Source of the DNA: Spirochaetia bacterium
GTDB taxonomy: Bacteria > Spirochaetota > Spirochaetia > DSM-2461
Length of the DNA: 64,000 nucleotides
Direction of reading: 5' to 3'
Assembly: GCA_963668315.1 (NCBI GenBank)
Contig: OY764216.1
Coordinates: 5,440,001 to 5,504,000 of the forward strand
In this document: positions 1,373-46,022 of the stretch, piece by piece
Numbering within the stretch: the first letter of the stretch is position 1
Layout of the letters: each line of letters opens with the position of its first letter
Notes under the pieces: model-generated
The model's input: only the letters and a program-made list of their open reading frames with translations
The model's database searches: none
What the model was told of the DNA's origin: nothing
Position numbers and translations under genes: made by a program

Positions 1373-1400
1373 ATGGTCTCCCGGGGGCCGCGGATTGCGC
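1373..1400 (-). promoter_or_regulatory. Putative ECF promoter, copy 1
   Basis: GCGCAA-N16-GACCAT on the minus strand, about 80 nt upstream of ATG 1291. Confidence 0.6.
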
Positions 1401-1658
1401 GCCGAGCGGATAAGATCTTCGATGGACCGAGAATGACAACTACGTTAGTCATCTTACTGCCCTATGTCGCCTAATTGACATCGAGGGGTCGTTGCACGCA
1501 GAATGCGGGCCTTGTGAAATTGGGGCTTTTCGTATCCGGACGGGGACGCCGGGGTGCCGCGTTCGTGCCTGACCCCCTCGCCCGAGCGACTGCTAGAATG
1601 ACGCCTGTCACATGACGCTGCATCACAACTCACTTCCCGTGTATCTGGAACGACTTCC

Positions 1659-3130
1659 ATGAGAATTCCCCTTGCCGTCGCTTTCGTTGCCCTGACGAGT
1701 GCTCTCACTTCCGCAACCGAGCTACCCCGAAGCACTCCGGAGATGCAGGGCGTGTCGTCTCAGGCCGTTCTCGAATTCGTGAACGCGGCCGACAAGAAGC
1801 TCGATTCGCTACACAGTTTCATGCTGCTGCGCCATGGCCATGTGGTGGCGGAGGGCTGGTGGGCGCCCTATCGGGCGGAAGCCCCCCATTCTCTCTATTC
1901 GCTGAGCAAGAGCTTCACCTCCACGGCCGTGGGATTGGCGATCGCCGAGGGCAAGCTCAGTGTGGATGACGAACTGATCAAGTTCTTTCCAGAGGACGCC
2001 CCGGCGAACCCAGCAAGAATCTCAGGTCGATGCGGATCAGCGACCTGCTCCGCATGTCAACAGGCCACCAGACCGAGCCACCGCGCACGTCGACGGAGCC
2101 CTGGACCAAGACCTTCCTGAACCACCCGGTTCCGTTCAAACCGGGAACGCATTTCCTTTACAACACTTCGGCCACCTACATGCTGTCGGCGGTCGTTCAG
2201 AAGGCAACGGGAGAGGTCCTTCTGGACTACCTGAAGCCCCGTCTATTTCAACCGCTGGGCATTGAAAACCCTACGTGGGAAACGAGCCCTCAAGGCATTT
2301 CTACCGGCGGTTACGGGCTGAGCGTTCGCACGGAGGACATCGCCCGCTTTGGGCAACTCTACCTGCAGAAAGGCAAGTGGCAAGGCAAGCAGCTTGTGCC
2401 GGAGGCGTGGATCGAGGCGGCAACATCCCGACAGACCTCGAACGGCAGCAATCCGGCAAGCGATTGGGACCAGGGCTACGGCTACCAGTTCTGGCGTTGC
2501 CGCCACGGTGTCTTCCGGGGCGACGGAGCGTTCGGCCAATACTGCATCGTACTGCCCGAACAAGACGCCGTGATCGCCATCACCAGTGGCCTGGGAGACA
2601 TGCAGGCCGTGCTGAACGTGGTATGGGACGAGCTTCTACCGGCTTTGAAATCGGGACCTCTTGACGCTGACGAACAGGCAGCGAAGACGTTGGCGGAACG
2701 GCTGAACGGATTGGCGCTACCGGTGCAGGAAGACGTCGCTTCGCCCACGGAGCCTTTGGGTGGAAAGTACGCCTTCCCGGAGAACGAGAACAAGCTGGAA
2801 TCGATCGCGTTGGAGAGCGGTGACAGCAACAGTCGGGTGACCCTTGTGGCACGGATTGACGGCACGGACCAGCGGATCGTCTTCGGTCGCGGCAAATGGG
2901 TGACGGGCAAGGCCGCCTGGATCTCGACGGCCGAGCAGCCCGTGGCGGCGAGTGGCGGCTGGACCACAAACGATACGTTCACGGGGAAGATCTGTTTCTA
3001 CGAAACACCTTATGTCGTCACGGTAAGCCTGAAGCACGCAGGCAGTGAACTCCGCTGCAGCTCGACATGGAACGTCCGGTTCGGCGGTGCAAAACATATT
3101 GAGTTGCAGGGGAAGGCCCAGGACCAATAG
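1659..3130 (+). pseudogene. Beta-lactamase class C/AmpC-family serine hydrolase with a single frameshift near 2003-2006 (real or sequencing error)
   Basis: Signal peptide and SxxK (SLSK) in ORF 1659..2120; YNT and family C-terminus in ORF 2030..3130; adding one base restores DAPAEPSKNLRSMRISDLL. Confidence 0.8.
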
Positions 3131-3676
3131 CGGGGCCGGCTCCTACAGCATTCCGGACTTCTCATTGCGAGTTCACTTCTGAGCCGTCCGGGTTCGTTTC
3201 GCACCGATTCCGGAATGTTTGGCCGCCGGTGAAAGGCCTTGGCGAGCAGCCCCCCGACACAGGGAGAACATTGCCCCAGATTCACAACAATAGGCAAAAT
3301 GCCCTTTTTTTCCGGCATGCGATATCAAATCGGGCAAGAGAACCTCCTGTTCGTTAGATGGAAGTGAAGAGTCCGGGCCATTAATAGGGACAGAGAAGCA
3401 CTTGGAACTCTGCTTCTGGGCGAAGTCTGGGTATCTCGCACGATTTCTGCCTTTCTGGGCCACTTGTTTTCCGGAGTTTTTTTGATCAGACTAAGGCTCC
3501 CTTTCTAAGCCGTTATGCTGTTGGCCCACCGTTGCGTGGCCATGCAGACCTCGACGGGACGAATTAGAAAACGGGGCAGGATCTGGTTGTTTTCTTTTTC
3601 CTAGGGGAGGAGTACCTCCTCCTCCTTCTAGATATCCGGATTGCGTGTGCCATTTTTGGCATTTTGGTCGTTCCGC

Positions 3677-3704
3677 GCGCAACTCGTGTCTTCGCGGGGA
3701 CTAT
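3677..3704 (+). promoter_or_regulatory. Putative ECF promoter, copy 2
   Basis: GCGCAA-N16-GACTAT, about 60 nt upstream of ATG 3763. Confidence 0.65.
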
Positions 3705-3762
3705 CTCTTCCGGGCAGTGAAGAAAATCCAGTTTCCTAACCACCTGAAAGAGGAGATGTGTC

Positions 3763-4095
3763 ATGTCGATCCGCAGGAGCATGCTGTTGCCGTTGGCCGT
3801 CCTGATGCTTGGCCTGGTCCCCGTTGGGACGACCCTGGCCGGTACGGGGACGAAGGCTCCCCAATCGCAGAGCCAGAAGCAGCAGGCGCCGAAGAAGGCG
3901 CCCCAGAAGGCCAAACGTCCTACCCAAACCGTGGTGAAGCATCACGGCGCGCACCGCTACGTGTGGGTCCGAGTGACGCCCGCCACGGTCAAGTATGAAG
4001 GCGACAGCCCGAAGTCTCAGCAGCCGACCGCGAAGCCGAGCAAGCGTACTCAGCAGAGCACGCAGCAGAGCGTTTCGCAGAAGCCCGGCAAGTGA
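3763..4095 (+). CDS. Small exported Gln/Lys/Pro-rich protein
   Basis: GAGGAG RBS, signal peptide ending TLA, low-complexity Q/K-rich mature region. Confidence 0.8.
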   Translation: MSIRRSMLLPLAVLMLGLVPVGTTLAGTGTKAPQSQSQKQQAPKKAPQKAKRPTQTVVKHHGAHRYVWVRVTPATVKYEGDSPKSQQPTAKPSKRTQQSTQQSVSQKPGK

Positions 4096-4345
4096 CCCCA
4101 GTCGGCGATTCCTTGACGGAACGGTCATGAGGTACCGACCGTTTCGTCGGGGCATGCCATTGAGCGACATTTGGAGGCGCGGGGGCTCGTGAGATTTCGG
4201 GCCCCCCGCCATTACCGCCGTACGCGACTCTACCAAGGAGTCATAAGAAAGATGCAGGGACTTACGATTGATACTGTCGACAACTGTCCGGACTGGGTTC
4301 GGGAATCATCCCCGGTTGCAGCCTTGGGATGAAGGTTGCCGCAAG

Positions 4346-5254
4346 ATGGACAAGCGTTTGCACTCATGGCGCCGCGAGTATTCGTCCAGCGTGTGCGACC
4401 AGGTCTTCGCGGGTGACTGCGAGGACAGCCGCGTGCTTTTTCAACGCCACTGGGAGTGTTGGATTCACCACTGGCAGACGGCGGGGCAGGAGGTTGACGG
4501 CGAGACCGTTGCCGAATCGATCGAGAAGGGCGTGGGCTACGTGGGCGGGGGCGACCTGGGGGGCAACCCCTTGTTTGACCTGGTGCTGGCCCTGGCCGTC
4601 ACTCGCCGGCATAGCAGAGCGGCGTCCCGCTTCCAGGACGAGTTCTTCGAGGAGGCCAAGTGCCACGCACGCAAGCTCGCGGCGGTTTTTTCACGGGAAG
4701 ATCCGCTGGAATGGTGGACCGAGTTCTTCGACGAACTGGGCGGCTTCAGCGGGCGCCCGGCGAAGCTCGATCGCTATAACGGTCGGACCTCGCTCCGCCG
4801 ATGGGTGCCAATTGTCCTGTGGAATTATCTGCGAAATCTGCTGAGGAAGCGGGGGAGGCGAAACGCCAAGGAAGGCACACTGCCCGATACGGTACGAGAC
4901 GCGAAACAGGAGGAGATCCCCGTGGAGGAGCAAGAGAACTTCGCAACGCTTTCGGCCATTTTTCGGTCCGCGTACGAGCAATTGTCTTCGGAAGACGCCA
5001 GCCTGCTTTCTCTGTACTACGACGAGGGATTATCGAATCTGGAGGTCGCCTCTCTGCTGGCGATCAATCCCGGTACGGCGACGCGGCGACGCAAGCGTGC
5101 CGAACAGAGGTTTCGCGAACTGCTTCTTCAAGAGGCCGAACAGCGGAACGAGTCGCTTCAATCCTTGCAGGAGCGAATTGCCTCGGCGGGGGTCGACTTC
5201 GCCAGCCTGCTGTTCAGCGTCGTCGAGAACCGAGACGAGGAGGTGACGTCATGA
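4346..5254 (+). CDS. ECF-type sigma-70 factor with N-terminal extension (resembles the Myxococcales-type family)
   Basis: DLVLALA..., KLDRYNGRTSLRRW region 2, region-4 HTH LSSEDASLLSLYYDEGLSNLEVASLLAINPGTATRRRKRA; start uncertain (4268 or 4346). Confidence 0.85.
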   Translation: MDKRLHSWRREYSSSVCDQVFAGDCEDSRVLFQRHWECWIHHWQTAGQEVDGETVAESIEKGVGYVGGGDLGGNPLFDLVLALAVTRRHSRAASRFQDEFFEEAKCHARKLAAVFSREDPLEWWTEFFDELGGFSGRPAKLDRYNGRTSLRRWVPIVLWNYLRNLLRKRGRRNAKEGTLPDTVRDAKQEEIPVEEQENFATLSAIFRSAYEQLSSEDASLLSLYYDEGLSNLEVASLLAINPGTATRRRKRAEQRFRELLLQEAEQRNESLQSLQERIASAGVDFASLLFSVVENRDEEVTS

Positions 5255-6411
5255 CCGAGCGGCAAACACTCGAAGAACTTGTCCGCCAGGCCTTTCGCAG
5301 CGGGCTGCAGACTTCCCACGATTCCGGGGGCTACCATCCGGTTGATGATGACGACTTTCTCATCGACCTGTCGATCGGTGGCACTTCGGATGCGAAGCGT
5401 GCCGAATTCGTCGACCACCTGGCGCGCTGTTCCTATTGCCGGCACGAAATCGCGCGGATGATCCAGGCGGGGGTGCTTCAGTTGCCGGAAGTCGCGGCCG
5501 AGGAGCCGCCTCAGGCAATCTCGTTGCCGCCGCGGAACGCATCGCGTTGGCACTCCGCCCGAATCCTGCTTGCGGCAGCTGCCGCGATCCTGATCGTCGT
5601 GGGAGTCTCCATACTCTTCATGCCGGGAACGAGCGAATTGGCGCTGGCCCGGAACGACTTGAAGGCCGATCGATACCTTTCGGCCCTGGAACACGCGGAG
5701 GCCTACCTGGATTCGTCGGCGGACGACGCTTCCGGGAGAGAGGAAGCGAAGCAGATTCTCAGCGACGCGGGGTACCGGCAGTCGCTCGAATCGTTGAAGA
5801 AGAGCGACTTCGAGCTCGTGAAGGAATTGGGAAGCCGGGTCGAAGACCTTGCGGGGCGATCGCCGCGGATGACCAATCTGAAGCTGCAGGCGATGCGGAA
5901 ACAAACCGGCTCGTCTGCGTGGCCTGGTCGGGGTGAGTTGACCGAATACGGCTATCGTCTTGACGGCCATTCCTATGCCAAGCCTTTGCCGGTCTTCGAC
6001 GAGAACGTGAAGGCGATTCTCTCGGGATACGAACGTGCCGTAGCCGAGTTCCCCGACGATTCCGAACTGCGACTGAATTACGGGCAGTATCTCCTGGAGC
6101 AGGACGATCCGGAGGGGGCGCGAGCCCAGTTCCTGGAGGCGCAGCGATTGGCCCCGAATGCACTCGAAACGCAGATGGCCCTGGGAATCGTCGCCTTCCA
6201 GCAGAAGCACTTCGATGCGGCCATCGGGTATTTTCGCTCTGTTTTGAACGGTCAGCCCGACAACACGCAGGCCATGCTGAACCTTGCCGTTTGCCATGCC
6301 CGGCTTGGCCAGAAGGCCGAGGCCGTGTCGTGGTTCGAGAAAGTCCGCGACCATCTCGCTCCCGGCCCTCGCCGCGACGAAGTGGACCGTGCCATCAACG
6401 ATCTGAAGTGA
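5251..6411 (+). CDS. Anti-sigma factor: ZAS zinc finger, TM helix, extracytoplasmic TPR domain
   Basis: ATGA overlap with the sigma stop; HLARCSYC (HxxxCxxC); TM ILLAAAAAILIVVGVSILF; C-terminal TPRs. Confidence 0.85.
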   Translation: MTERQTLEELVRQAFRSGLQTSHDSGGYHPVDDDDFLIDLSIGGTSDAKRAEFVDHLARCSYCRHEIARMIQAGVLQLPEVAAEEPPQAISLPPRNASRWHSARILLAAAAAILIVVGVSILFMPGTSELALARNDLKADRYLSALEHAEAYLDSSADDASGREEAKQILSDAGYRQSLESLKKSDFELVKELGSRVEDLAGRSPRMTNLKLQAMRKQTGSSAWPGRGELTEYGYRLDGHSYAKPLPVFDENVKAILSGYERAVAEFPDDSELRLNYGQYLLEQDDPEGARAQFLEAQRLAPNALETQMALGIVAFQQKHFDAAIGYFRSVLNGQPDNTQAMLNLAVCHARLGQKAEAVSWFEKVRDHLAPGPRRDEVDRAINDLK

Positions 6412-6463: not shown

Positions 6464-8059
6464 ATGACAACGCAACGCCAGCTCCTGCCCATCACGCTCG
6501 CCGCTATCCTTGTGGTCGCAACGCTGGTTCCCGCCCGGGCCCAATCGGGCCGGACGCTCAATAACTTCCTTGCCCCCCAAACCAAGGCGGAGAACTCGAA
6601 CGAGAGTCCTGCGGCCGAGGACGCCGCTCATCCGGCCTTCTTCGTCAACCTGGACGTAGATCGGGACGATCGCCTCTACGAGGAGGGAGAGCTGATTCGG
6701 GCCACGGTCAAGTCGGAACGAGCCGGTTACCTGTACGTCTTCGTCGTCTCCGGCGACGGCACGGCCCTTTGCCTGTTTCCGAACAACTACGACCGCAACA
6801 ACCGGATTCCGGCCAACCGGGAGATCGTGGTTCCCAGCCCCGAGGCGCCTTTCAAACTGAGGGTTACGGCTCCGTTCGGAGAGGAGGGCCTTGTGGCGAT
6901 GGTGTCGGAGGAGGAGATCAAGCCCGAGTTGCTGGGGGCCAAGTCGCTCACGGAGAAGCCTGCGACGGAGGTTTCATGGTCGAAGGCGATTGAAGTGGTA
7001 CCCAAGTACGACTGTGCGGATGACATGGTGGTCATTCGGACGGTGAAGTCGCGGGCAGAGGCACGTCCGGCGGGCGAGGGTGCTCGCCCTGGGGCCGCCG
7101 AGCGAGAAGAGGGCCGGGCCGAAGCCACCGGGACGTCGTCCGTACGCCGGGTCGGCCTCTTTGTGGGAATAACCAAGCATCTGCACATAACCGACAACGA
7201 CATGCCTTCCATTTCGCACAGCGTTGACCTCGTAGCGGCCGCCATGCATGACTTCGGTCACCTGGACGAGATCATCCTCGTGCGAGATGACAAGGCTTCT
7301 CACGACGGGATTGAAGCCGCCTTCGCGAAACTCGTCAAAATGACCAATCCGGGCGATGAGGTCTTCATCTACTGGGTCGGTCACGGATGCGCCTATGACT
7401 TTGCGGACGGCCGCCATGAGAATCTCCTGTGCGTCTACGATTCGGACGTTGTCGCCGATGAAAACGATCACCCCTGCCCCACAAACTACGTGCTTGAGAC
7501 AGAGTTCACCAAGTGGGTTCGAAACCTGGAGAAACGCCGCATTGCCATCGTTGTGGATTCGTGTCATTCCGGGGGGCTGCTGGATGCTGAACCGACGGAC
7601 ACGGTTCGGTGGGCGGAGTCACTGGAGCGTTCGGGCAACGAGTCGCTCACGAGCGTGATGTCGGGCGTCAAGGTCGGCGACATGACGAAAACGCTCACCG
7701 ATCTTCGCGACAAGACCCAAACGCCCGACGACGACGGACCGCTCTTCCTGATCGATGCCCTGCGGCGACTCAAGGGAATCGGCGAAGGGGACGCGGCCGT
7801 GATCCTGTCTTCCGCCGAGGATCAAGCATCATTCGGCGGGCTCTTGTTTAATGGAAAAGAGTACGGTCTGGCATCGTTCTGCTTCGCGGCAGCGATTATC
7901 GACGCCCCCTTGCTCTACGCCGGAACCGACCGACAACTCACATTTGCCGAAGCCTGGCTGTTCATGAAGACCCATGTCACCGCGATCAGCCTGGAATTAG
8001 AGCGGTACCAAACCCCGGTCTATTACAACCCGATCGGTGAGATCATTGTGAGGCCTTGA
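6464..8059 (+). CDS. Exported DUF4384-like + caspase-like (peptidase C14) protein
   Basis: Signal peptide; GYLYVF...LFPN domain; catalytic YWVGHG and VDSCHSGG. Confidence 0.85.
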   Translation: MTTQRQLLPITLAAILVVATLVPARAQSGRTLNNFLAPQTKAENSNESPAAEDAAHPAFFVNLDVDRDDRLYEEGELIRATVKSERAGYLYVFVVSGDGTALCLFPNNYDRNNRIPANREIVVPSPEAPFKLRVTAPFGEEGLVAMVSEEEIKPELLGAKSLTEKPATEVSWSKAIEVVPKYDCADDMVVIRTVKSRAEARPAGEGARPGAAEREEGRAEATGTSSVRRVGLFVGITKHLHITDNDMPSISHSVDLVAAAMHDFGHLDEIILVRDDKASHDGIEAAFAKLVKMTNPGDEVFIYWVGHGCAYDFADGRHENLLCVYDSDVVADENDHPCPTNYVLETEFTKWVRNLEKRRIAIVVDSCHSGGLLDAEPTDTVRWAESLERSGNESLTSVMSGVKVGDMTKTLTDLRDKTQTPDDDGPLFLIDALRRLKGIGEGDAAVILSSAEDQASFGGLLFNGKEYGLASFCFAAAIIDAPLLYAGTDRQLTFAEAWLFMKTHVTAISLELERYQTPVYYNPIGEIIVRP

Positions 8060-8134
8060 AGAAGGGCAGGGAGCCGCCCTGCTGAATAAAACGGTGGTCT
8101 GCCAGCGATTCGGTGAGCTAACAGGAGGGGACCG

Positions 8135-11100
8135 ATGAGTTGCCGATTTTTGATGAACGTGATATTGGCCCTGGTGCTGGCCGTGTTCGCCGATCCGGGC
8201 CGAGCCCTCGGTGACGATTTAGACGACTTTCTCCGCCTGTCGGAGGAGTGCAAGAAGCAGTCGGATGCGGGCGAGTTTGATCGCGCGGAGAAGACAGCGC
8301 TTGCACTCCAGCGGCTGGCTGACGGGGCGTTGGCAGAACTCCCGCTTGCCAGGCTGGGGGCGGCTCGCACGCTGGGGACGATCTACTTCCGCCAAAGACG
8401 CTACGACGAAGCGGAACCGGTTCTGAAGCGAGCCTTGGCGATCAGCAAGGAGGCCTTCGGGAACGACGAGATGGCGGTGGGGGCGTGCCTCAACAGTCTG
8501 GCTCTCGTGTACCACAGCCAGGGACGGTACGACGACGCGAAGCCGCTCTACGAGCAGTCGCTGGCGATTGCCGAGAAGCAGCTAGGAAAGACTCATCCGA
8601 GTGTCGCGGCTGCACTCGGGAGCCTGGCGGAACTACACAGCGAGCAAGGTCGCCTCTCCGACGCGGAGCCGATGCTCGAGCGAGCCCTGGCGATCAACGA
8701 GCAGACTCTCGGCAAGGATCATCCGCAGACCGCCCTCTCTCTCCACAACCTGGCGAAGCTGCACGAAAAGCAGGGACACTTCGCCGAGGCGGAACCACTC
8801 CACCGGCGCGCCTTGTCGATCCTGGAGAAAGCTCTTGGGGAGGATCATCCCTACCTGGCGACGAGCTTGACCAGCCTGGCGAATATGTACTGCGCCCAAC
8901 AGCGGTTCACCGAGGCGGAGCCTCTGTTGAAGCGAGCCCTGACGATATCGGAGGCGGCCTTCGGACGTGACAACCCGGGGGTGGCCTCCGCCCTCAACAG
9001 CCTGGCCCTGCTGTATCAGAGTCAGGGCCGGTACGACGAAGCCAAGGCTTTCCACGAGCGGGCACTGGCCATCGCCAAGAAGACATTCGACGAGAACCAT
9101 CCGAATGTGGCCACGAGCCTCGACAGTCTGGCAGGCCTCTATCACAAGCAACGCCGCTATTCCGAGGCGGAGCCGCTCTACAAGCAGGCCCTGGCGATTC
9201 GCGAGAAGGCCTTTGGCCCCGACCATTCTGACGTGGGCCGGAGCCTCGACAACCTGGCCAGCTTGTACGCGGACCTGGGACGATATGCCGAAGCGCAGCC
9301 GCTTTACGAACGGGCCCTGGCGATCAAGGAAGAAGCTCTGGGCGCGGACCATCCCAGCGTGGCGACCAGCCTGAACAACCTGGCACTGCTGCTGGCGGAA
9401 CGGGCCAACTACGCCGAAGCGGAGCAACTCTTCGATCGATCCATAGCGATCCAGGAGAAGTGCTATGGCAGTGACGGGCTCGGCGTGCTGACCACCTTGA
9501 ACAACCGGGCCACACTGTGTGTCGATCAGGGACGCTATGCCGAGGCGGAGGGGCTTTATCGACGTGCACTGGCCATTGTGGAAGAAAACGTCACGAACGA
9601 TCATCCTGCCGTGGTGTCGTGCCTCAACTATCTGGCGGTCTTGTACCGGCTCCAGGGCCGCTCCTCTGAGGCGAAGGAGCTTTTCCTGCGAGCGCTCGCG
9701 ATCCAGAAGAAGTTGTTCGGGGAGGACAGTTGTGAATCTGCGGAAACACTCGGCAACTTGGCGGGCTTGTATTCGAAACAAGGCCGGTACGCGGAGGCGG
9801 AGCCGCTGTTCCTGCGCGCCATCGCCATTCAGGAGAAGTTCCTCGGCAAGGAACACATTCAATTGGCGATGAACCTCGAGAATCTGGCATTGCTGTATTA
9901 CAATCAAGGCCGTTTTGAGGACGCCGTACTGCTGGTGAAGAGGTCGCTGGCCATCCGCGAGAAGCTGTTTGACGGTACGCACCCCAGCGTGGCCGACAGT
10001 CTCGGCAGTATGGCCGTGCTTCTCAGCACCGTGAATGCCGACACCGAGGCGGAGCGTCTTTATCAGCGATCCCTGGAATTGCACGAAAGCGTTTTGGGAC
10101 CATCGCATCCGCGCGTGGCGGAAGGGCTGGTCAATCTGGCCGGTCTGTATGTGAAGCAGGAACGTTTCGCGGAGGCGGAACCGCTGCTCCGTCGATCGCT
10201 CAAGCTCTGGGAAGAGTCGTTTGGACCAGAACATCCGAACGTAGCTCAGTCGCTCATCTCGCTTGTCGATCTGCATTTGAAGCAGGGACGCGGCCGTGAC
10301 GCGGAACCGCTCGCCGATCGCGCCGTTGCGATCACAAACCGCGAGGGAATTGCCGAAGGGGAACGCGCGGCCAGCTATGCCCGCCGCGCAGAAGCACGTT
10401 GGGCTCTTGAGAAACGGGAAGACGCTGTGGCGGACCTCCGCGAAGCAATGCGTCTGGCCACCCGGATACGCAGGCAAGCGTCGGGGATCGAGCAGCAGCG
10501 GTCCGGCGCGTTTGCGATGCACCTTCATCTGTTTGAGCGGATGGTCTTCTGGCAAACCGAGTTGCACGATTTTGACAAGGCTTTGGAGGCGATGGAGCAA
10601 TCCCGTGCCCAAGGTCTGCAGGACCTGATGCGGGCAAACGGGGTCGATATGCTCGAAGGCCTTCCCGAGGAGACTGCATCGCGTCTGAACAAGGCGGAAG
10701 GCCTGGCTCAAGCGGATGTCGTCTCCTTGCAGAAGCGATTCAAAACGCTGCAAGATCGAACGGACATGGAATCGGATGAAAAGGCCGAAGAAGGCAAGCG
10801 GCTTCTGGAGGAGCTTGCCGCGGCCCGGGAACGGCTGGTTCAGGCCTGGTCGAATATCAAGAACGCCAGCCCCGCTTATCGGCTCCTGCTCGCTGAGGAC
10901 CGACAGCCCGTGCGGATCGAAACCATGGGCAAGGAGTTGGCCGAATCGGACACGCTTGCCCTGCAATATCTGCTCGGTTCGGAGCACGGATTTCTGCTTG
11001 CCTACGGCGGCGGAATCGAACCGATCCTCGTGGAACTGAAACTCAACGACACGCAGGCCTCACTTCTGAACAGCGAAGCGGGACCGCTCACCGCGATTCG

Positions 11101-12175: not shown

Positions 12176-12216
12176 GCTCTGCTCTGGCATTTATACATTA
12201 CCGGAGGGATGCTACG

Positions 12217-16173: not shown

Positions 16174-16244
16174 GGCTCCTGCCGCGACTATTGCGTTCCA
16201 GACCATTCGCTCACGGAAATCCGATAACAAGAAGGAAGGCCACA

Positions 16245-20312: not shown

Positions 20313-20346
20313 TGGTCACAAGACTCATCTCGACTCGGAGAGCACC

Positions 20347-25403: not shown

Positions 25404-25865
25404 ATGAGAGACAGATGGTTGTTTGTGGCTGCCGGACTCCTTTTGGTCGCTTGCCTGGGATGTTCGTCCGAACCGCCGGCGGACTCGAAGACGGGGCAGA
25501 AGCCCGACCCCCCTGCCCAGGAGCAAGCAGTTCCCTCCGCGCCTGGTGACGAGCAAGGCCAGGTCGACCTGAAGCAGGCTCCCGTGGCTGTGCCCAGCAA
25601 GACGGGCCAGGAGCAGTCGGAGGTTCCTCCCGCACCAGGTGACGGACAAGAACAGGTTAGTCAGAAACAGGCTCCCGTGGCTGCGTCTGCCAAGGCAGGT
25701 TCGGATCAGCTGAAGATCCCTGCTGCACCTGGTGACGGGCAAGGTCAGGTTAGTCAGAAACAGGCTCCCGTGGCTGCGCCCGGCAAGTCCGCCCCGGAAA
25801 AATCAGAAGCTCAGCCCGCGCCGGGCGACCAGTCGGGGGCAGCGAACGAGAAGCAGACGCAGTAA
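25404..25865 (+). CDS. Lipoprotein with 31-aa Gln/Lys/Pro-rich repeats
   Basis: GGAG RBS; lipobox-like CLG-C; PGD repeats starting at 25542, 25635, 25728, 25821 (93-bp period). Confidence 0.8.
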   Translation: MRDRWLFVAAGLLLVACLGCSSEPPADSKTGQKPDPPAQEQAVPSAPGDEQGQVDLKQAPVAVPSKTGQEQSEVPPAPGDGQEQVSQKQAPVAASAKAGSDQLKIPAAPGDGQGQVSQKQAPVAAPGKSAPEKSEAQPAPGDQSGAANEKQTQ

Positions 25866-25971
25866 AGCCCGTTGCAGAAACTTGACAAATCGGCCAGGGA
25901 CGTCCACCGATGCAGTCAACTTTCCAGCCTCTGCTAGACGCAAAGACCAATAGCAACTGGAGGAAAAGACC

Positions 25972-28817: not shown

Positions 28818-28869
28818 CCCCAAGACAATTCCATTCGATATCAACGTGAAATCAAGACTAGGAGACACA

Positions 28870-30345: not shown

Positions 30346-30411
30346 GCAGAGTTCGAGTCAGGAGCGTAGGCAGGGCAGCATCGCCCCCGTGGCGGTGCTG
30401 CCCCGCCTTGC

Positions 30412-33728: not shown

Positions 33729-33747
33729 CGATTCTGCGTGCTCGCGG

Positions 33748-33775
33748 GCGCAATCTCGACTGCGTTCGAGTGTAT
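33748..33775 (+). promoter_or_regulatory. Putative ECF promoter, copy 4
   Basis: GCGCAA-N16-GTGTAT, about 90 nt upstream of ATG 33864. Confidence 0.65.
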
Positions 33776-36002: not shown

Positions 36003-36035
36003 GCCGTTGCCGAGGATGATAGGAAGGAGCTACTC

Positions 36036-37493: not shown

Positions 37494-37585
37494 CGGGGGC
37501 AGCATCCAATCGGCAATCCGTCGATCGGCGCGGTTTCTCTTCATGAACGAGATGGAAATCCAGGATAGATTGAGCGAGGGCATCA

Positions 37586-40500
37586 ATGAAGTCAAGCACG
37601 TTCTGCCGGCTGTGTTTGATCGCCGGAAGTCTGGCGGGTGTTTTCGGGCTGAATTCGGGCTTGCCCACGCGGGCAGCCGAGTCGACGGAGGAATCACCAC
37701 CGGTCTTGCTGCGTTGGAAGCTCCAACCCGGAGAAGAGCTGCGTTATTCCCTGCAACAGACGGATGTCGGACTGTCTTCTTTCGGCAGCATGCACGAAGA
37801 AGCAACCGAGGAAGGTCGACGTGTTATGAGTGTCGACATGTCCTGGCATGTTGACGAGGTCCAGTCCGAGAAGGTTGATCTCTCCATGCAAGTCCGGCGA
37901 CTTCGATTCTGCATGGAGCAACTCGAAGGAACGACGAATGAGCCAGGTGATGCCTCCAAGTCGCTCTCCGTCCGGTTTGACTCCCAAACGGAGGACTTCA
38001 AGCTCCGCCTCGATCCGTCCAAGCGGCACGAGCCGTTGCTGATCCCACAAAATCAGGCAGGAAATGCCCTGCAAGACTACGCCAGGCTGTGTGGCCAGAA
38101 ATCCCGCTTCACACTCTCTCCTCGCGGAGACGTTCTCCAAGCCGAGTTGCCCCAGGGACTGAAACGCCGGTTCCAACTTGGCGAAGGAGGCGAACAAAGG
38201 TTCCTGGCTCTGCAGTTTGATCCGCTGGCAAGGCTGACCAGTTGTTTTACACAAGGAGACTTCGCGTCCGTGGCCCTGGGGTCGTTCGTTCCCCCTGGCC
38301 TGCAAGTAACAACGAACCGGGGACCAACGGCCTTCTCGCAAATCTCGTCACTGCTATTCGGGTGCCTGCCGAGCCACGCGGTTCGAATCGGCGATCGTTG
38401 GGAGAGGGAGACGTCCATGGAGACGATGTTGTTCAACGCCACCACAACGTCTCATTTCACCTATCAAGGTCTTGTTGAGATGGACGGCCGGGCGATCGAC
38501 AAGATCTCCATGGAGATGGAGTTACATCTCACGCCGTCTCAAATGGTGGCAAACGCGAGCCCTGGAGCACAGCTTGGCGAGTACTGGAAGAAGTTCAATC
38601 AATTCGTGACCTTTCAACTGAATGGCACGTGGTGCTTCGATCGCGATCGAGGGCGTACTGTTGAAATGATGATCGACGTGAACACCCAGTTCCGGGTTGA
38701 CCCGCAAGAATACAGCGGCGCGTATGCATCGGTGATGGCCAACCAGGAACGGCAGTCTCGTCACAGGATTCACATCGCGGAGGGCGCAAGCGGTGAAGAA
38801 GAACTTAAGATGCCCGCCTATCTTTCGGAAAATCGACCGCAATTGGTCGACCTACGAACACAACTGAAGACGAGATACGAGGAACAGTTCCAGGCAGGGC
38901 AGTATGGGCAGGCGGCGAAGACAGCAGACGAGCTCTTTCGACTGCACCAGCGTTTCATCCATTGGACGCGTCAAGGCAATCGGGACAATGGCGACGGGAT
39001 CCCCGCGAACCACTTTCTGAGCCAAGGTTCGGAGTTTCTAGAAGGTTTGGATTGGGCGGCGCAGGCCCTGATGATGCGAGGGGACGCCGAGGCGAAGATG
39101 TCTCGTTTCGCCGAGGCAGAACGCTCCTATCTCGATGCTGAACAGGGGTTACGGTCGCTCCGAGGATGGTGGAGCCCCGAACTGGCCGCCACTTATCAGC
39201 GTCTGGCTGATCTGTCCGCGGAACAGGAACACTGGGCCAAGGCACTCGAATACCAGGAAAGGTCCGCCAATATTCGTGAGACCCTCCTCAAGCCCACTGG
39301 GGAATTAGGGCTGCGGTTTCACGTCGTCATGGATGAAACGAGTGGGGCAGCAGGCCGACGGCCTTTCGGATTCCTGCGGATTTCCGAGGTGGCTCCCGGT
39401 TCCGCGGCGGCTACGACCCTGGGCCTGAAAGTTGGCAACACCATTGACTTCATCCAGGCAGACGGCGGAGTCCTGCTCAACTGCGGCGGCGAAGTCCGGG
39501 GGAACGAGGCAGCGGAGTGCCTCAACAGCTTGCTGAGCGGGCCTGCTGGGACGAAGGTCGCCGTCCGAGCCCATTACGGTCGCAACGCAGCATCCGAGTT
39601 CCAATGGCTCGAACGTGCAGCCCGTGAAGACCACGAGCCACCCTCCGAAGCCGCGGTGAGCAATCTGGTCTCCTGCCTGCTTCGCATGGCCTCGCTCTGC
39701 CGACACGCCGGCGATTTGAAAAGAGCGAGAAGTTCCCTGCTCCGTGCAGCCGATCTGGCCGACAGCGTTGACAATCTGGACGGCGGATCGGCGGCAACTC
39801 GCTACGAGTTGGCATGCGTGTTGCAGGAAGAGGGCCGATCCGAAAAGGCGGAACAGCTCTTTCGGGAATGCGCGGAACAACTGAAAGAAGAGACACAGGA
39901 TCGGGAGTTGTACGCTTGCGTGCTGGCGAGTTGGGCAACATTGGACCAACAGGCAGGCAACACGGAAAAGGCCGTACAACGAATCCGGAAAGCCGCATCG
40001 ATCCGAACGGAGTTATTCGGCTCGAAACATCCGGAAACGGTGGCCACCCATTGGCAACTGGCAAGGTTTCTCCTTGAGTCGAAGGCCGCAAACGAAGCCT
40101 CCCGGGTCCTGGAAGCAACGCTCGATGAAATCGACGACAGTGCGGGCAGCTTCACCCTAAAGGCCAAATGCCTGCAAACATTGGCGGAAGCGAAATGGGC
40201 TCTGCAGGAACGTGACGCAGCGATCGACCTCCTCCGCCAAGCCATGAATCAGGCCGAACTTCAGCGCGGGGCAACCAAGGGAGGGGACTCGGTCCGGGTC
40301 AGCCTGTTTGGCCGATTTGCAGGTGCTTATGAGCGGATGGTCGAGTGGCAGATCGCTCGCCAGCAACCTGCGGAGGCTTACGAGGCCATCGAACGCTCCC
40401 GCGCACGATCCCTTATCGACCATCTGCAGTGGTACGGCGTTGACCTCCTGCAGAGCGTGGACGACTCGAATCTGAATGTCATGCGTCTCTTGGGGGGAGA

Positions 40501-42259
40501 GGAAGACCCGGTGCTCGACTCGCAGGCCTGGCAGCGTACGAAGCAACTGGAAGACACAGCTCAAGACACGGAACGCTACCGCCAACTGTACGCACAGTCG
40601 CCGCTCCGCGGCCGAACGGAACAAGAACAACTCCGCGAGGAAATCGCCGAGCTCCGCCGCGGCGGGAGGCGGCATGCTTCCTACGATGATGAAACTCGTC
40701 TGCAGCGTCTTTCCATTGAATACGCCTCTATGAATCTGCCAAAGGAGCTGCGACGCGATCTGTTCTACCTGTTTCGCGACGAGTTCTCGCGATTGTGCGA
40801 CGAGACCATGCGCATCGGGCGCGAACGCCGGCAATCACGCCCACAGTACTGGGAACAGATCGCGAATAACTGGCATCCTCTCTCGATGGAAGAAGTTGTC
40901 AATCTCGTTCGAAGCAGCAAAGCCCTCTACGTGCAATATCTTGTCGGCTCGGAAGGCACCTACGTGCTCACCGTCGCGCCCGACGGAAAGACGGAAACGC
41001 AAACGCTCCGCATTCGGGATCAGGAAGGCTCCATTCTCGGGGTGCCTGTCGGGCCCTTGACGCGAGAGAAGCTGCGGACAATTCTCCTGGCTCCCGACTG
41101 CGGCGTATGCCGCTTGCTGGCGTCACCGGAAAAGGCACTTGAGGCAACCAGCCGGTTGGCGGCGCTCTGGTCGCTGTTGATTCCCGACCACGCCAAACAG
41201 CTGCTACGTAGCGGCAGTCCTGAAGAGATCATAGTCATCCCCGATGGCCTGCTCTCAATCCTCCCGTTCGAAGCACTGGTGATGAACACGGCTCCCAGTA
41301 CGGAGTACCTTCTCGATTCAGGCATTCCGCTTAGCTACTGCTATTCGGCCACCCTCCTGCAATTGCTTCGGGACCGGCCGGAGGCGACGTCGTTGCCCGG
41401 GGTTGAATCCGTCTTGTCCGTCGCGGACCCCGCGTACACGAATTCAACGCCTGGGGTCGAGGACGGAAACGACCGTAATGGCACACCGGCCACACGTTAC
41501 GTGCTTGCGGGAGGCTCATTGGCCAAGTTGCCTTTCACTGCCGTGGAGTCGCAATGGGTTGCCGACGTCTTTCGCGATGCGGGGAGGCAAACCGAGTCCC
41601 TGCTCGGAAATTCCGCCACGGAGAACGCGGTGCGTCAGAGGATCGCAGGTCGTCGCTACGTCCATTTCGCCTGCCACGGTCTGGTCGATGAATCGGCGGG
41701 AAACCGCTTTGCCGCGTTGGCAGTCACCCCTGGAACATCTGCACGCCTTTCCCGAGGAACCCTGCGGCAGCGTTATGAGAGTCTCATATCGCCCAGACTG
41801 TTTCCGCACCTGGACTCCGCCGGCTTGATGCCTGCTTCGCTTCGCGAGGAGGACGCCTACGGCGATGAGCCGGGCGAGGTGTCCCGTAGCGAATGCGACG
41901 GCTTCATCACTCTCGACGAGATATGCCAACTGAACCTGCACGGGTGTGAACTCGCAATTCTTAGCGCCTGCAATACGAACTTCGGTCCGGAGCAAACCGG
42001 AGAAGGTGTTTGGTCCCTGTCTCGCGGCTTCTTCGTAGCCGGCGCTCGTCGTGTCGTGGCAACCAACTGGTCAGTCGATGATGAGGCCGCCTCAAGTCTC
42101 GTAAGTTACTTTTGTAGTTGCCTCGCTCAGGGCGAAGTGTTTGGAGACGCTCCCAACTACGCGAAATCACTGCATCGCGCGAAGAAATGGCTGCGAGATC
42201 AGAAAGAATGGGAGAGCCCGTCCTTCTGGGCGCCCTTCGTCCTGATGGGGCCTGGCTGA
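37586..42259 (+). CDS. Exported multidomain CHAT protease 6: DUF6263-like beta domain, TPR, PDZ-like insert, TPR, CHAT
   Basis: LRWKLQPGE N-terminal domain; GELGLRF...ISEVAPGSAA...GLKVG...GPAGTKV PDZ-like segment; HFACHG, LSACNT. Confidence 0.9.
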   Translation: MKSSTFCRLCLIAGSLAGVFGLNSGLPTRAAESTEESPPVLLRWKLQPGEELRYSLQQTDVGLSSFGSMHEEATEEGRRVMSVDMSWHVDEVQSEKVDLSMQVRRLRFCMEQLEGTTNEPGDASKSLSVRFDSQTEDFKLRLDPSKRHEPLLIPQNQAGNALQDYARLCGQKSRFTLSPRGDVLQAELPQGLKRRFQLGEGGEQRFLALQFDPLARLTSCFTQGDFASVALGSFVPPGLQVTTNRGPTAFSQISSLLFGCLPSHAVRIGDRWERETSMETMLFNATTTSHFTYQGLVEMDGRAIDKISMEMELHLTPSQMVANASPGAQLGEYWKKFNQFVTFQLNGTWCFDRDRGRTVEMMIDVNTQFRVDPQEYSGAYASVMANQERQSRHRIHIAEGASGEEELKMPAYLSENRPQLVDLRTQLKTRYEEQFQAGQYGQAAKTADELFRLHQRFIHWTRQGNRDNGDGIPANHFLSQGSEFLEGLDWAAQALMMRGDAEAKMSRFAEAERSYLDAEQGLRSLRGWWSPELAATYQRLADLSAEQEHWAKALEYQERSANIRETLLKPTGELGLRFHVVMDETSGAAGRRPFGFLRISEVAPGSAAATTLGLKVGNTIDFIQADGGVLLNCGGEVRGNEAAECLNSLLSGPAGTKVAVRAHYGRNAASEFQWLERAAREDHEPPSEAAVSNLVSCLLRMASLCRHAGDLKRARSSLLRAADLADSVDNLDGGSAATRYELACVLQEEGRSEKAEQLFRECAEQLKEETQDRELYACVLASWATLDQQAGNTEKAVQRIRKAASIRTELFGSKHPETVATHWQLARFLLESKAANEASRVLEATLDEIDDSAGSFTLKAKCLQTLAEAKWALQERDAAIDLLRQAMNQAELQRGATKGGDSVRVSLFGRFAGAYERMVEWQIARQQPAEAYEAIERSRARSLIDHLQWYGVDLLQSVDDSNLNVMRLLGGEEDPVLDSQAWQRTKQLEDTAQDTERYRQLYAQSPLRGRTEQEQLREEIAELRRGGRRHASYDDETRLQRLSIEYASMNLPKELRRDLFYLFRDEFSRLCDETMRIGRERRQSRPQYWEQIANNWHPLSMEEVVNLVRSSKALYVQYLVGSEGTYVLTVAPDGKTETQTLRIRDQEGSILGVPVGPLTREKLRTILLAPDCGVCRLLASPEKALEATSRLAALWSLLIPDHAKQLLRSGSPEEIIVIPDGLLSILPFEALVMNTAPSTEYLLDSGIPLSYCYSATLLQLLRDRPEATSLPGVESVLSVADPAYTNSTPGVEDGNDRNGTPATRYVLAGGSLAKLPFTAVESQWVADVFRDAGRQTESLLGNSATENAVRQRIAGRRYVHFACHGLVDESAGNRFAALAVTPGTSARLSRGTLRQRYESLISPRLFPHLDSAGLMPASLREEDAYGDEPGEVSRSECDGFITLDEICQLNLHGCELAILSACNTNFGPEQTGEGVWSLSRGFFVAGARRVVATNWSVDDEAASSLVSYFCSCLAQGEVFGDAPNYAKSLHRAKKWLRDQKEWESPSFWAPFVLMGPG

Positions 42260-42415
42260 ACAAACTTAACACGGAATGCGAAACGGAATGTGATTCCTGT
42301 TGTCCCTGCAAGGCATAGAACAATGTGGTTGCAACAATCTGGTTGTGTTTTAAGAACAGAGGGAGCTCGCCCAGGCGGATCTTCCACGTGCGTAAGCCGT
42401 TATGCACGGAAGACG

Positions 42416-44487
42416 ATGCCGTTGTGCGTACCTCTTTGGCTGGCCTTGATCCTGCTGCTCACGGCAGAAAGCCAGGCTCAAGTGACAATACGCGGTACGC
42501 GACTGATTGCCCCGCCTGAGGAAGATGTCACGGCTGTCGATCTGCAGGGTGCCGAGGCGGTCGTCAGAAGTCCCACCCTCTATCACTCGATTGCATTTCC
42601 GAAAGAGCCCAACCGTCTTGTGACGGTGGATCGCGACATCGAAATCTGGGATCTGGCCTCGCGCAAAAAGGTGGACCGCTGGAAACTGGACGATCCGGCA
42701 AATGCCCGCGACGATTCAACAAATCTGTCGAGAATCATGTCGCAACTTCAATCTGGGGCAACACGTTCCCTTGCCGTGTCGCGTGACGGGCAGTTCCTGG
42801 CATGTCTTGGGGCGCAACTGTGCGTGTTTCATGCGGCGACGGGCAAAAACCGTCTGGAAAGGCGCCCTGGCTGCCGCCGTCTTCCAGGATAACCAAACGC
42901 CCATTGCCTTCTGGCCCACGCGACCGTGGCTGGTAACCCAGGGCCCGGGCAGCGGTGGAACGGTTGTCGATTTCCAGACGGGTGACCAGGTTGCGGTGGT
43001 CGGGCCACCACGTCCCAGGGCCGGTTCCTCCGAACCTCGCCTGGCTGTGTCGGGGCACTATGGCCGAACTTGCGCGGTCTCTCCAACGGGGCGTGACCTG
43101 GCGTTCATCGATTTCGAGATCTTTCCAGGCGGCTGCGTCCGGTTCTGGGAACCGAATGAAAAGCAACTCCTCACCAAGGCCATACGGACCTCCGAAGACA
43201 TCGCCTCCATTGCCTATTCGCCCGACGGCAAGACGATTGCCGCGCTGGTCGGGAACGGGGATTGTCATGACATCGTGTTGTTCGACGCAGAGTCATGCCG
43301 GCGGTACGCCACCCTTGCCCATTCACGCAGCACTCGCCACCTGGTCTTCTCCCCCGACGGGCGCTGGCTGGCGACGCACTCGGCTGGAGATGTTCTCATT
43401 TGGGATGTGAACAGTCGTCAGATCATTGCGGTGTTGACCGGTGCTGTCGGCTGGAGTCCCTGCATAGCCTTCTCTCCCGATTCCCAGTGGTTTGGCGCGG
43501 CGGACGGCGGCGTGTACCTCTGGTCGCTGGCGGAGATCGCAACTGACAAGATCGAGGCGGTCGACACGAAACCACCGCTGGTTGGGCACGCCCACAATGC
43601 GCCGGTTACCGATCTCCACTTCGCGCCGGCGTCCAACACACTCTATTCCGTTGGGCAGGACGGCGCGTTGAACGCCTGGAACTTACCCGGCGGCGACGCC
43701 TGCTGGTCGCAACAGGAGGAACGGCTTGAACTAGCCCGTGTCACCGCTTCTTCCGATGGAAAGCAGCTTATTGCCGCCGGGGCCAGGCGCGGCCGGGGTG
43801 TGATTCGATTTCACGATCCGCAACACGGGACGCTTGGACGCGAAATGACGCGCCCCGCGGGCATGGTGTTAGCGCTCGCGTTGGCTCCAGGCGACCGGCA
43901 ACTTGCCTTCGGAACGAGCGAAGGGGAGATCGCCGTTTACAGCATGGAAGACGAAGGGATCCAGGACACGTTCCAGGCCAAGGGCGCCCCGATTTGGAGT
44001 CTCGATTACTCGCCCGACGGACGCCTGCTGGCCTCTGCCGGCTGGACACGACATGTCGAGTTCAACGATCATACAACTCTGGGACACATCCGCAGGAACT
44101 ATCGTTGGGAAACTCGCAGCTCTCCAGGGAACCGTCTACGTCGTGCGGTTTTCTCCTGACGGAAAGCAATTGGCATCCGGAGGAACGGATGGCGTCGTCC
44201 GCGTGTGGGACGTATCTTCCAGAAGGCTCATCAAGAAGATGGGCGATACCAGCGGAAGTGTCTTCGACTTGGCGTTCCAGCCAGAGGGAGATGCACTCAT
44301 TTTTGCGGGAGCGGACGGTCTTCTCCACCGTTGGCCGCTCAAGACGCGCTCTGCCCGGCAGCTATTGCCCGGACTGGGCGGCTACGGTTTCACCGTGGAA
44401 ATCATGCCCGATGGCCTGGCTGTCCTGGCGGCTGGCGCCGATCGCTCGCTTCATCGCAGGACATTGCCGACACTCTCTGCAGAATGA
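42416..44487 (+). pseudogene. Exported WD40 beta-propeller protein with two frameshifts
   Basis: WD40 repeats (SPDG, IWD) continue across three frames; shifts at the A5 run 42845-42849 and near 44045-44075. Confidence 0.8.
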
Positions 44488-44533
44488 GGCAGGGGCCATC
44501 CACCGGATGTGCCACTGTGAGGGAACCTTGATC

Positions 44534-45378
44534 ATGAGAAGAACATCCTTGATTCTGGCCTGTCTACTTATCCTCTATGCCGGATGCGCATCAAGCCTGA
44601 ACGCCCAAGATGCCGAGACGCGAAAGCTCCAACACCCCAAATGGCGTTTTGGCGTTCCGGTGACGAAGGAGAACGTTCAGTCGCGCTCCCATATTGCAGT
44701 TGTATCTCCCGATGAGCGCATGATCGCGGTAAGAGTGTATCCCCCACACAACGTTGAGTGCATCGTTCTCTTCGACAGGAAGACCGGACGCGAGATCCGA
44801 CGACTTGCGACACGAGAGGAAGTGGGCCACCAATTCGGTTGGTTGAGTTTCTCGCCCGATTCGAAGCACCTATTGAGTTGGTCCGGCCAAGAGTTCCGGT
44901 ATTGGTCCGTTGAGACGGGTGAGGTTCTTCTGAAGCACGGTATCCGGCGCAAAGGTCCGATTGCCGGCCCTCCCATCTTCCACCCGACGGGCAAGTACTT
45001 CGTCTCGTGTGTTGGGAGTGGCGCCCAAGGCAACCTCTTGCTCTTCTGGGATCGTTCCACGCTGAAACACGTCGGATCGTTCAATCCGAGAGGGGAATAC
45101 CCTTGGTTCGACTGTGATCAAGCAAGGGAGATGAGCTGTCGTACGAAAAGCCTGCATGGGAGCACGGCGCATTCTGCAAGGCGGTTCTGGAAGCTCTCGC
45201 GGGAAAAGCAGATGCTGACGACAATGGGAAGGTCACCATCAAAGAGCTCGTGGACTATGCTCAGCTGCGAGTGGCCGAACTAACCGAAGATCGTCAGCAT
45301 CCGCATCTGCCGAATTTGAACGATTTCGCGCCGGACCTTGTACTTGCTCACGTCGTTGAACAGGCGGGGTCGCCTTAG
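44534..45378 (+). pseudogene. WD40-caspase gene with a large internal deletion
   Basis: Signal peptide and a few WD-like repeats, then out of frame 45118-45378 SSKGDELSYEKPAWEHGAFCKAVLEALAGKADADDNGKVTIKELVDY...QHP (C-terminal half of a C14 domain). Confidence 0.85.
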
Positions 45379-45588
45379 ATAGTGGGCGGGATTTTGTCCG
45401 CGCCGGCTTCAAGCTAAGCGGTCCACGGCAGAAGGCGGGATGCGAATTGCCCCGCCTCCGCCCGGATCTTCTCAATCGCGATTGTGTCCCGATCGCGCTC
45501 ACAGTCCAGCACGATCGCGGCGCTGTGCGGTGACCCAGAAACCGATCATCACACGGTTCCCTTCTTTCCCCGAATGCATCGGGAACGC

Positions 45589-45616
45589 GCGCAATCCGTT
45601 CTGCCGACGGGACTAT
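45589..45616 (+). promoter_or_regulatory. Putative ECF promoter, copy 5
   Basis: GCGCAA-N16-GACTAT upstream of the small ORF at 45824. Confidence 0.6.
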
Positions 45617-45823
45617 TCACGGTAAGCAACGGGAGGTCGGTTCCACCTCGACGTTGCTAGCGGCGAGACAAGCTTCTCGCTTCTTCCCCGGAACAGGCCG
45701 GGGCGGAGAGTCGGCAATCCAACCTCGTTGCCATGGGGCAGCGTTTTCATTCAGGCTGGCGCCGTCTTACTCGAGCCTGCTGCAACGGCACGTCCCCCAT
45801 TCACCGGCGTGAAAGGAAAAATC

Positions 45824-45955
45824 ATGAAACCGCTTGGCACGATTCTCATGTACTGTCTTGTCTGCGGACTTTATTGCCTGATGCTGTCGGCAGTAATGAC
45901 GCTCTGCCTGATGGCACTCTCCTTGTCCTATTGCCTGCCGCCGGTTGTCAACTGA
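45824..45955 (+). CDS. 43-aa hydrophobic Cys-rich small protein
   Basis: GAAAGGAAAA RBS; MKPLGTILMYCLVCGLYCLMLSAVMTLCLMALSLSYCLPPVVN. Confidence 0.55.
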   Translation: MKPLGTILMYCLVCGLYCLMLSAVMTLCLMALSLSYCLPPVVN

Positions 45956-45994
45956 TTGCACCGTGGACACGGCGGCCGTTTTCTCTTCTTCGGC

Positions 45995-46022
45995 GCGCAA
46001 TATCCCATACCGGCGGGACTAT
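45995..46022 (+). promoter_or_regulatory. Putative ECF promoter, copy 6
   Basis: GCGCAA-N16-GACTAT, about 90-105 nt upstream of the radical SAM gene. Confidence 0.65.

Follow-up and report, generated by a model that had tools for sequence, protein, structure and literature searches.

In this work we describe a 64,000-nt stretch of bacterial DNA (positions 5,440,001-5,504,000 of contig OY764216.1, hereafter the window; coordinates are window positions unless otherwise marked) that encodes a sigma factor resembling the extracytoplasmic function (ECF) type, an adjoining anti-sigma candidate, an island of caspase-domain and TPR-CHAT proteases, a transglutaminase, and a cluster for a ribosomally synthesized and post-translationally modified peptide (RiPP). 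Distributed ahead of these genes are copies of a bipartite motif, GCGCAA-N16-hexamer, in which the hexamer, or -10 half, follows the window consensus G(A/T)(C/G)YAT (Table 1). Site 2 heads a 21-kb run of genes for a 110-aa protein, the sigma factor, the anti-sigma candidate, a DUF4384-caspase, four TPR-CHAT proteases and a caspase; behind site 1 lie leftward genes for a coiled-coil protein (cc333), a WD40/caspase protein, a caspase and an SH3-like/WD40/two-caspase protein.

Table 1. Features of the window and the joint to its left, in order of position.
Feature	Position	Strand	Remarks
Chimera joint	G000:C1:5,428,913/4		11,087 nt left of window; short-read contigs break at exactly that base
cc333, coiled-coil-like protein	341..1342	-	Likely start 1291; N-terminal hydrophobic segment, Lys/Gln-rich tail; conserved regulon member
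Site 1	1373..1400	-	GCGCAA-N16-GACCAT; heads leftward operon running ~10 kb past the window's left edge
One-base assembly errors	2005, 3723, 4202, 4301		Relative to short-read contigs
Site 2	3677..3704	+	GCGCAA-N16-GACTAT; putative autoregulatory promoter of sigma operon
110-aa exported-looking protein	3763..4095	+	25% Gln+Lys
ECF-like sigma factor gene	4253..5254	+	Frameshift seen at 4301 stems from an assembly error
Anti-sigma candidate	5251..6411	+	386 aa; His-x3-Cys-x2-Cys zinc motif, one transmembrane helix (~105-123), C-terminal TPRs
DUF4384-caspase, four TPR-CHAT proteases, caspase	6464..25226	+	Signal-peptide-like N-termini (by eye)
Site 3	25326..25353	+	GCGCAA-N16-GTGTAT; heads transglutaminase operon
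153-aa lipoprotein-like protein and 270-aa p270	25404..26784	+	153-aa protein 21% Gln+Lys; p270 is the conserved transglutaminase partner
Transglutaminase, TGase_elicitor family, with DUF4384	26781..28817	+	PF16683, E 1e-19; WxGxCHxW intact
DUF4384-caspase, fifth TPR-CHAT protease	28711..33618	+	Pfam
Site 4	33748..33775	+	GCGCAA-N16-GTGTAT; heads caspase/TPR-CHAT/WD40 block
Two caspase-domain proteins, sixth TPR-CHAT protease, frameshifted WD40 gene	33865..45378	+	Domain searches
Site 5	45589..45616	+	GCGCAA-N16-GACTAT; 208 nt before 43-aa ORF
43-aa hydrophobic ORF, five Cys	45824-45955	+	Lies between sites 5 and 6; ribosome-binding site good; reality doubtful
Site 6	45995..46022	+	GCGCAA-N16-GACTAT; heads RiPP cluster
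Radical SAM/SPASM-type maturase, three Cys-x3-repeat precursors, ABC exporter	46109..50146	+	PapB and TIGR04115 matches, both below cut-off
Cys-x3 precursor genes (starts)	47390, 47692, 47993	+	TIGR04114/04117 weak
Site 7	50310..50337	+	GCGAAG-N16-GACTAT (one -35 mismatch); precedes TetR/RND efflux operon
Sigma-70-like promoter of TetR/RND operon	50362-50389	+	TTGCAA-16-TATACT

All six copies that an earlier note on this DNA had listed (sites 1-6) were recovered with the same positions, strands and sequences, five of them extended to GCGCAAT as the note had said. They are intergenic and face the next gene, 51-208 nt from its start codon in our own set of coding sequences, and the spacing is as rigid as the note had held it to be, spacings of 15 and 17 giving 0 matches. 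When coding sequences were checked for the motif, the -10 half was found at N16 in 6 of the 9 intergenic but 0 of the 27 coding occurrences of GCGCAA (36 in the window). The note's expectation of well below one chance match agrees with 100 dinucleotide shuffles of the window (mean 0.18, maximum 1), a figure that overstates significance because the pattern was fitted to the six sites after the fact. The real tests of the motif are leave-one-out ranking and other genomes. With weight matrices built from five sites, the held-out site ranked 1-7 among the 390,874 positions of the planctomycete segment (see below) in all six rounds, and the full matrix yielded site 7 (score 19.8, next best 13.4 in that segment), which also lies inside the cluster. 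That the pattern arose by chance and was merely spotted by eye, a suspicion its after-the-fact fitting might raise, is negligibly probable: it is already refuted by the out-of-sample conservation described below, and the shuffles, the leave-one-out ranks and the coding counts also stand against it.

The source of this DNA is itself composite. Contig OY764216.1 (5.62 Mb) is an assembly chimera, of which only the last 195 kb, including the window, come from a planctomycete. The joint falls within an open reading frame (ORF); short-read contigs from its two sides differ in depth in two runs (188.9 vs 16.6 and 60.1 vs 4.3) and continue into different sequence, and the GC content and tetranucleotides of the last 195 kb are markedly unlike those of the rest. 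We take the gene content of this segment to be of planctomycete type, and the main part of the contig is presumably spirochaete-like, judging by its transfer-messenger RNA tag. A horizontally acquired island in the main organism was considered and is ruled out by the depth difference and the divergent continuation at the joint. A scan of the whole contig returned only the same six strict matches, a count that is void as a control because the contig is chimeric; the whole contig was dropped for this purpose, and the fair control, 131,584 nt of the planctomycete segment outside the window, gave 0. The earlier note had overlooked the chimera, as well as site 7, the leftward caspase operon behind site 1 and the role of the anti-sigma-like partner. 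The genome record is rated 96.95% complete and 1.62% contaminated despite carrying these 195 kb of a second organism, and is hereby flagged. Over the 19.9 kb compared with short-read contigs, which take in sites 1 and 2 of the seven, five indels proved to be assembly errors; both sites are free of them, while one-base errors split the sigma gene and a beta-lactamase-family gene (1659-3130).

Upstream of orthologous loci, where the earlier note had proposed to look, the GCGCAA motif precedes most homologous sigma genes and the orthologous island operons. Of 25 non-redundant homologous sigma genes, 16 have GCGCAA no more than 100 nt from their estimated start, against an expectation of 1.07. A later set gave 5 of 16 with 0.63 expected; leaving out three loci that nearly duplicate earlier ones, the count is 4 of 13. 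In these relatives the -10 half is either (G)CGTCT(T), with variants, at unchanged spacing, or CGTC with a spacer shortened by one base, and the loci of the shorter class make up a single clade in the sigma tree (8 rows, 100/100). With its AA(T/C)-N15/16-CGTC geometry, the family motif fits the AAC...CGT hallmark of ECF promoters (PMC8103513). Across 353 kb from 18 motif-bearing loci, GCGCAAY..STCT shows a single spacing peak (22 vs 0-4 at 11 other spacings), in a count that takes in the sigma-proximal sites used to define the pattern; six other loci showed no such peak. A metagenome scan added one true locus and one false positive (L003).

Beyond the sigma genes, the motif accompanies the same classes of island genes. 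Eleven of the 16 genome-wide matches in G442 (11.3 Mb), a genome fetched after the pattern had been fixed, fall within 64 kb around its sigma gene. G257 has five copies near its sigma gene, all within 16 kb and one of them in the transglutaminase gene itself; G081 has four and G283 five. The motif stands ahead of p270-transglutaminase in six genomes (G005, G257, G111, G002, G431, G442), ahead of cc333 in G257, G002, G346, G005, G014 and G442, the last with three tandem cc333 copies and one promoter for each, and ahead of caspase operons in G081, G283, G253, G002 and G003, some of them on contigs without the sigma gene. By comparison, ten genomes without a sigma match hold 1-4 scattered motif matches, no two sharing a contig, and the window's own variant stays at background level across 261 family-level genomes (0-10 matches in each), with no clustering among the 150 rows listed; both argue against a general planctomycete promoter. 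In G442 a promoter cassette of ~50 nt is repeated five times before unrelated membrane or exported genes, among transposase-like ORFs (G442:C5:1,493,577-1,533,715). We read such duplication as a way in which cargo may join the regulon, its copies being no independent evidence.

The proposed reader of the motif is encoded within the island. Its start, placed by the earlier note at 4346, lies at the ATG at 4253: one base that the assembly has at 4301 is absent from short-read contigs in two runs, and homologues align upstream of the old start. The protein matches TIGR02937 (52.8 bits, cut-off 42.9) and PF08281, and the best matches of a profile search against the PDB are AlgU, sigmaE and SigL (E ~1e-11 for AlgU and sigmaE, from profile position 111). 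Its AF2 model (pLDDT 89) likewise finds ECFs as top Foldseek matches, with an E-value of only 3.7e-3. Like ECFs it has sigma2 and sigma4 and no sigma3; at ~333 aa it is not a short sigma2-linker-sigma4 protein, having a helical C-terminal tail and a conserved N-terminal extension of ~110 residues (WxCWxxHW..GGxPLxD), which ECF classifications permit. The extension is common to the 78 representatives of the family (E<=1e-30, profile search). Named loci of this sigma family are all from Planctomycetota. Taxonomically around G001, homologues were found in 17 of the order's 401 genomes and 16 of the family's 261; two close homologues of the window sigma, at 74% and 52% identity, were available as protein sequences only. 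In L010:9806-12103 the N-terminal half of a sigma homologue shares an ORF with a caspase domain, downstream of a motif copy, either through fusion or assembly error.

Directly behind, and overlapping the end of the sigma gene, lies the anti-sigma candidate, and the downstream gene is conserved in family loci. H56, C60 and C63 are invariant in 16 homologues, hydropathy indicates the transmembrane helix, and domain searches return TPR matches only, with no CHAT domain. A predicted complex of the sigma factor with the first 85 residues of this partner scored 0.87 (best control 0.01), the runs agreeing in at least 91% of contacts with a partner pLDDT of at least 86; 116 of 157 solved pairs passed the mark used, as did 2 of 215 mismatched ones. 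The pair of sigma factor and zinc anti-sigma (ZAS) domain resembles solved complexes, and the score shows a likeness that may itself explain the pass. In L113:3770-6394 an anti-sigma homologue occupies one 874-aa ORF together with a DUF4384/caspase-type region (blast label only), possibly a fusion like that of DdvA (see below) within this sigma family.

Taken together, these sequence comparisons suggest that the motif very probably serves the ECF-like sigma factor of the island itself as its -35/-10 promoter. An alternative is that the motif is the operator of a dimeric DNA-binding regulator or a mobile-element repeat. G257 carries a dispersed REP-like repeat, in dozens of copies over many contigs, that matches the family pattern by chance or origin; it makes up most of the high genome-wide count of G257, which was left out of our counts, and shows how a repeat can mimic the pattern. 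In the window, by contrast, the halves are related neither as direct nor as inverted repeats, the spacers of sites 1-4 are not conserved (10-20 of 48 positions), and the copies always point in the sense direction just upstream of a start, so that we regard an operator or repeat as highly improbable. Readings of the motif as a sigma-70 or sigma-54 promoter were rejected on inspection against the consensus sequences: there is no TAnnnT at 16-18 nt, and the reverse strand is without GG-N10-GC.

The sites could also be real promoters read by another host sigma factor, such as a general stress sigma, with the island sigma merely one of its targets. Planctomycetes average 40 ECFs per genome (PMC7826278), at least 96% of the host genome lies outside the available sequence, and the window -10 is unlike that of all relatives read. 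On the other hand, matches are confined to the island within the 195 kb, where one further ECF gene is found, and are clustered at the island sigma in G442; the promoter class tracks the tree of the island sigma, and genomes without this sigma show no cluster. On balance we consider a foreign reader improbable, if less so than an operator.

Several findings weigh against the assignment of the motif to the island sigma as well. The -10 of the window (GACTAT type) differs from that of all relatives read (CGTCT type), and a search for residue-base covariation brought out no clean covarying position in the sigma factor; the change cannot be assigned to a residue because two close homologues are available as protein only. 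No such motif was detected in fourteen loci with the same genes, in which a de novo search reached 5 of 14 at best, equal to shuffles, while a positive control reached 12 of 20 (shuffle maximum 6). The larger tree places the window sigma among these motif-less loci (89/91, unstarred) and the smaller one beside the motif clades (87/50). In G002 total matches number 13 vs 12 in the reversed control, 10 of 14 hand-picked matches off sigma contigs are not ahead of island genes, and the five G442 copies represent one duplicated cassette. Finally, the planctomycete sequence at hand amounts to 195 kb, with the host's remaining sigma factors outside it.

If the island sigma does read the motif, the zinc-type N-terminal domain of the adjacent membrane protein would hold it at rest. 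An envelope signal sensed by the periplasmic TPR part would lead to destruction of the anti-sigma, probably by regulated intramembrane proteolysis as in other single-pass anti-sigmas, and the freed sigma factor would fire site 2 in a positive feedback and sites 1 and 3-6 besides, so that ~60 kb would be induced jointly. The induced set would comprise the exported caspase and CHAT proteases, the transglutaminase with its Gln/Lys-rich exported partners and, in this genome, the RiPP cluster. Each sigma lineage would retain the GCGCAA -35 with its own -10 or spacer, and add cargo by copying the promoter before new genes. Three promoter classes sharing one -35 would form a ready-made series for studying the promoter code of ECFs, within a sigma family whose N-terminal extension is unexplained.

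This arrangement recalls DdvS/DdvA of Myxococcus xanthus, described in PMC11506125 as an ECF sigma with a single-pass anti-sigma that has a cytoplasmic zinc domain and periplasmic TPRs, in an island with sigma-dependent promoters P1-P4, the sigma's own included, and with CHAT and other cysteine peptidases. Further traits of that system are cleavage by RseP and defence against phage when it is induced. Both systems have an island sigma with several internal promoters, putative ones in the window, and an anti-sigma or anti-sigma candidate with a zinc domain, a single transmembrane helix and periplasmic TPRs. Whereas DdvA, in that account, carries a fused TPR-CHAT in a 900-residue periplasmic part, the anti-sigma candidate of the window has 386 aa and is CHAT-free. 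Here six TPR-CHAT proteins and many with caspase domains are encoded by genes of their own and look exported, the outputs would be a transglutaminase, coiled-coil proteins and a RiPP, and the sigma factor, with the long N-terminal extension, belongs to a different family. No DdvS-type regulon (CBASS, type III-B CRISPR) was found among the window ORFs searched (Pfam 39 ORFs, PADLOC 14), which yielded only caspase, TPR and spurious radical SAM/repeat matches. In design the island would work as DdvS/DdvA does, but in a different sigma family and with separate proteases that are probably exported. It is conceivable, although we lean against it, that the anti-sigma is first cleaved by one of the island's proteases, which would be a split form of the model proposed, but not demonstrated, for DdvA (PMC11506125).

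Other systems share some of these features. The CASP-sigma of type III-E CRISPR is a locus-encoded ECF with three motif copies in its own locus (PMC10028731, bioRxiv 2022.08.17.504292), and CASP-sigma/Csx30/Csx29 likewise places a TPR-CHAT protease beside a sigma/anti-sigma pair, with DUF4384 in some Csx30. Craspase, however, is cytoplasmic and RNA-triggered, whereas the anti-sigma of the window is a membrane ZAS protein and its proteases look exported; Cas7-11, Csx30 and Csx31 had no matches among the window ORFs scanned. ECF54 genes adjoin CHAT and TPR genes, but ECF54 is 100% Actinobacteria, without an anti-sigma and with the promoter GTATCAG / CTCC, and the window sigma falls outside its definition; the predicted promoter of ECF51 (GCAACCG / GCGTGTC) resembles the family motif, in a group that is 100% Actinobacteria without protease context (PMC7826278). 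ECF87-89, compared by description only, are planctomycete ECFs with an N-terminal extension, none of them studied experimentally (PMC8103513). EACC2-caspase systems also couple caspase genes to an ECF sigma and a TPR protein, with proteolytic activation proposed, but their TPR protein is DUF1822 (PMC8195603); EACC2, TRADD-N and DUF1822 had no matches in the window domain searches, and no promoter motif appears in the portion of that report consulted. Our literature search, whose scope lay outside the Wiegand 2020 groups that may include this sigma family, returned no account of the family, its motif or the island.

Bacteria widely carry caspase and CHAT proteases and, to our knowledge, triggers or substrates are known for almost none. 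A private promoter would define the genes acting with such proteases: a conserved core of caspases, a GP42-type transglutaminase and Gln/Lys-tailed exported proteins, together with variable cargo. Of the five caspase-type ORFs tested, four carry both the His and the Cys motif, and all 6 CHAT ORFs carry the Cys motif. Judged by eye, the N-termini make export of the proteases probable, and the only part of the anti-sigma then within their reach would be the periplasmic one. The transglutaminase matches the solved elicitor enzyme (PDB 3tw5, E 5e-11), WxGxCHxW is kept in 9 of 11 homologues, and p270 is fused to the enzyme in four other loci. Homologues of cc333, which had no match in a Pfam search, are 30-45% identical in sigma loci, and 7 of 10 distinct ones end in PIFQQ[SFN], closing a Lys-rich tail. 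The Gln+Lys content of the 110-aa and 153-aa proteins compares with a background mean of 7% and maximum of 11.6% in 78 ORFs. Because transglutaminases join Gln to Lys, these exported proteins are plausible substrates, and the travelling of the enzyme with Gln/Lys-tailed partners suggests a protease-plus-cross-linking envelope response. More speculatively, and with little confidence, we envisage an inducible clotting-like response in which a protease cascade frees the sigma factor and matures substrates, while the Phytophthora-GP42-type transglutaminase cross-links cc333 (by its PIFQQS tail), the 110-aa protein and the 153-aa protein, forming a patch or coat in response to attack or damage, variable cargo being added through promoter-cassette duplication.

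Two local features of these genes deserve mention. A long PSGT tandem repeat linker (~residues 300-425) separates the enzyme from the DUF4384 part of the transglutaminase; matches to circumsporozoite-type repeats in the PDB are spurious and due to it. Directly before site 4, at 33677-33730, the sequence repeats part of the 3' end of the CHAT gene that comes before it.

The earlier note had joined the protease island, the transglutaminase and the RiPP cluster in one regulon. The core link of sigma factor, protease island and transglutaminase is supported by conservation in relatives, whereas the RiPP arm is confined to this genome, where it has two perfect copies of the motif variant specific to the genome. 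We still think it likely that the RiPP cluster is co-induced with the island, in which case expression of the sigma factor should switch on the whole island, an otherwise silent RiPP cluster included. The competing view, that the regulon is limited to the core island, with the RiPP and efflux genes as passengers and sites 5-7 as weak or dead copied promoter fragments, seems to us unlikely, though it has several points in its favour: no radical SAM homologue was found in the related sigma loci searched or in 301 genomes (0 at E<=1e-40), although 611 maturase homologues occur elsewhere at E<=1e-60; the flanks of sites 5/6 and 5/7 share 23 of 48 positions (9-20 in other pairs); a sigma-70-like promoter overlaps at the mismatched site 7; and cassette duplication is seen in G442. 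Against it, sites 5 and 6 are the two best-scoring motif copies, also when held out, and site 6 sits 87 nt ahead of the maturase, upstream of which no sigma-70-like promoter was found.

With regard to the cluster itself, searches with the Cxxx-repeat radical SAM RiPP families gave 128 bits for the radical SAM protein (cut-off 350) and 19.2 for one of the three precursors (cut-off 20). The 43-aa ORF has a codon score of 0.72 vs 0.67 for a control frame, and a family search gave no match; the region after site 5 showed no structured RNA (z -1.56), and no Rfam match was found in the window. Behind each of the three tandem precursor genes (47390-48290) stands a similar inverted repeat (GGTTGTTGG...CCAACAAC-like), which could set transcript stoichiometry. 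The sigma-70-like promoter 25 nt after site 7 is overlapped by a further inverted repeat, a likely TetR operator, the two together spanning 50362-50406.

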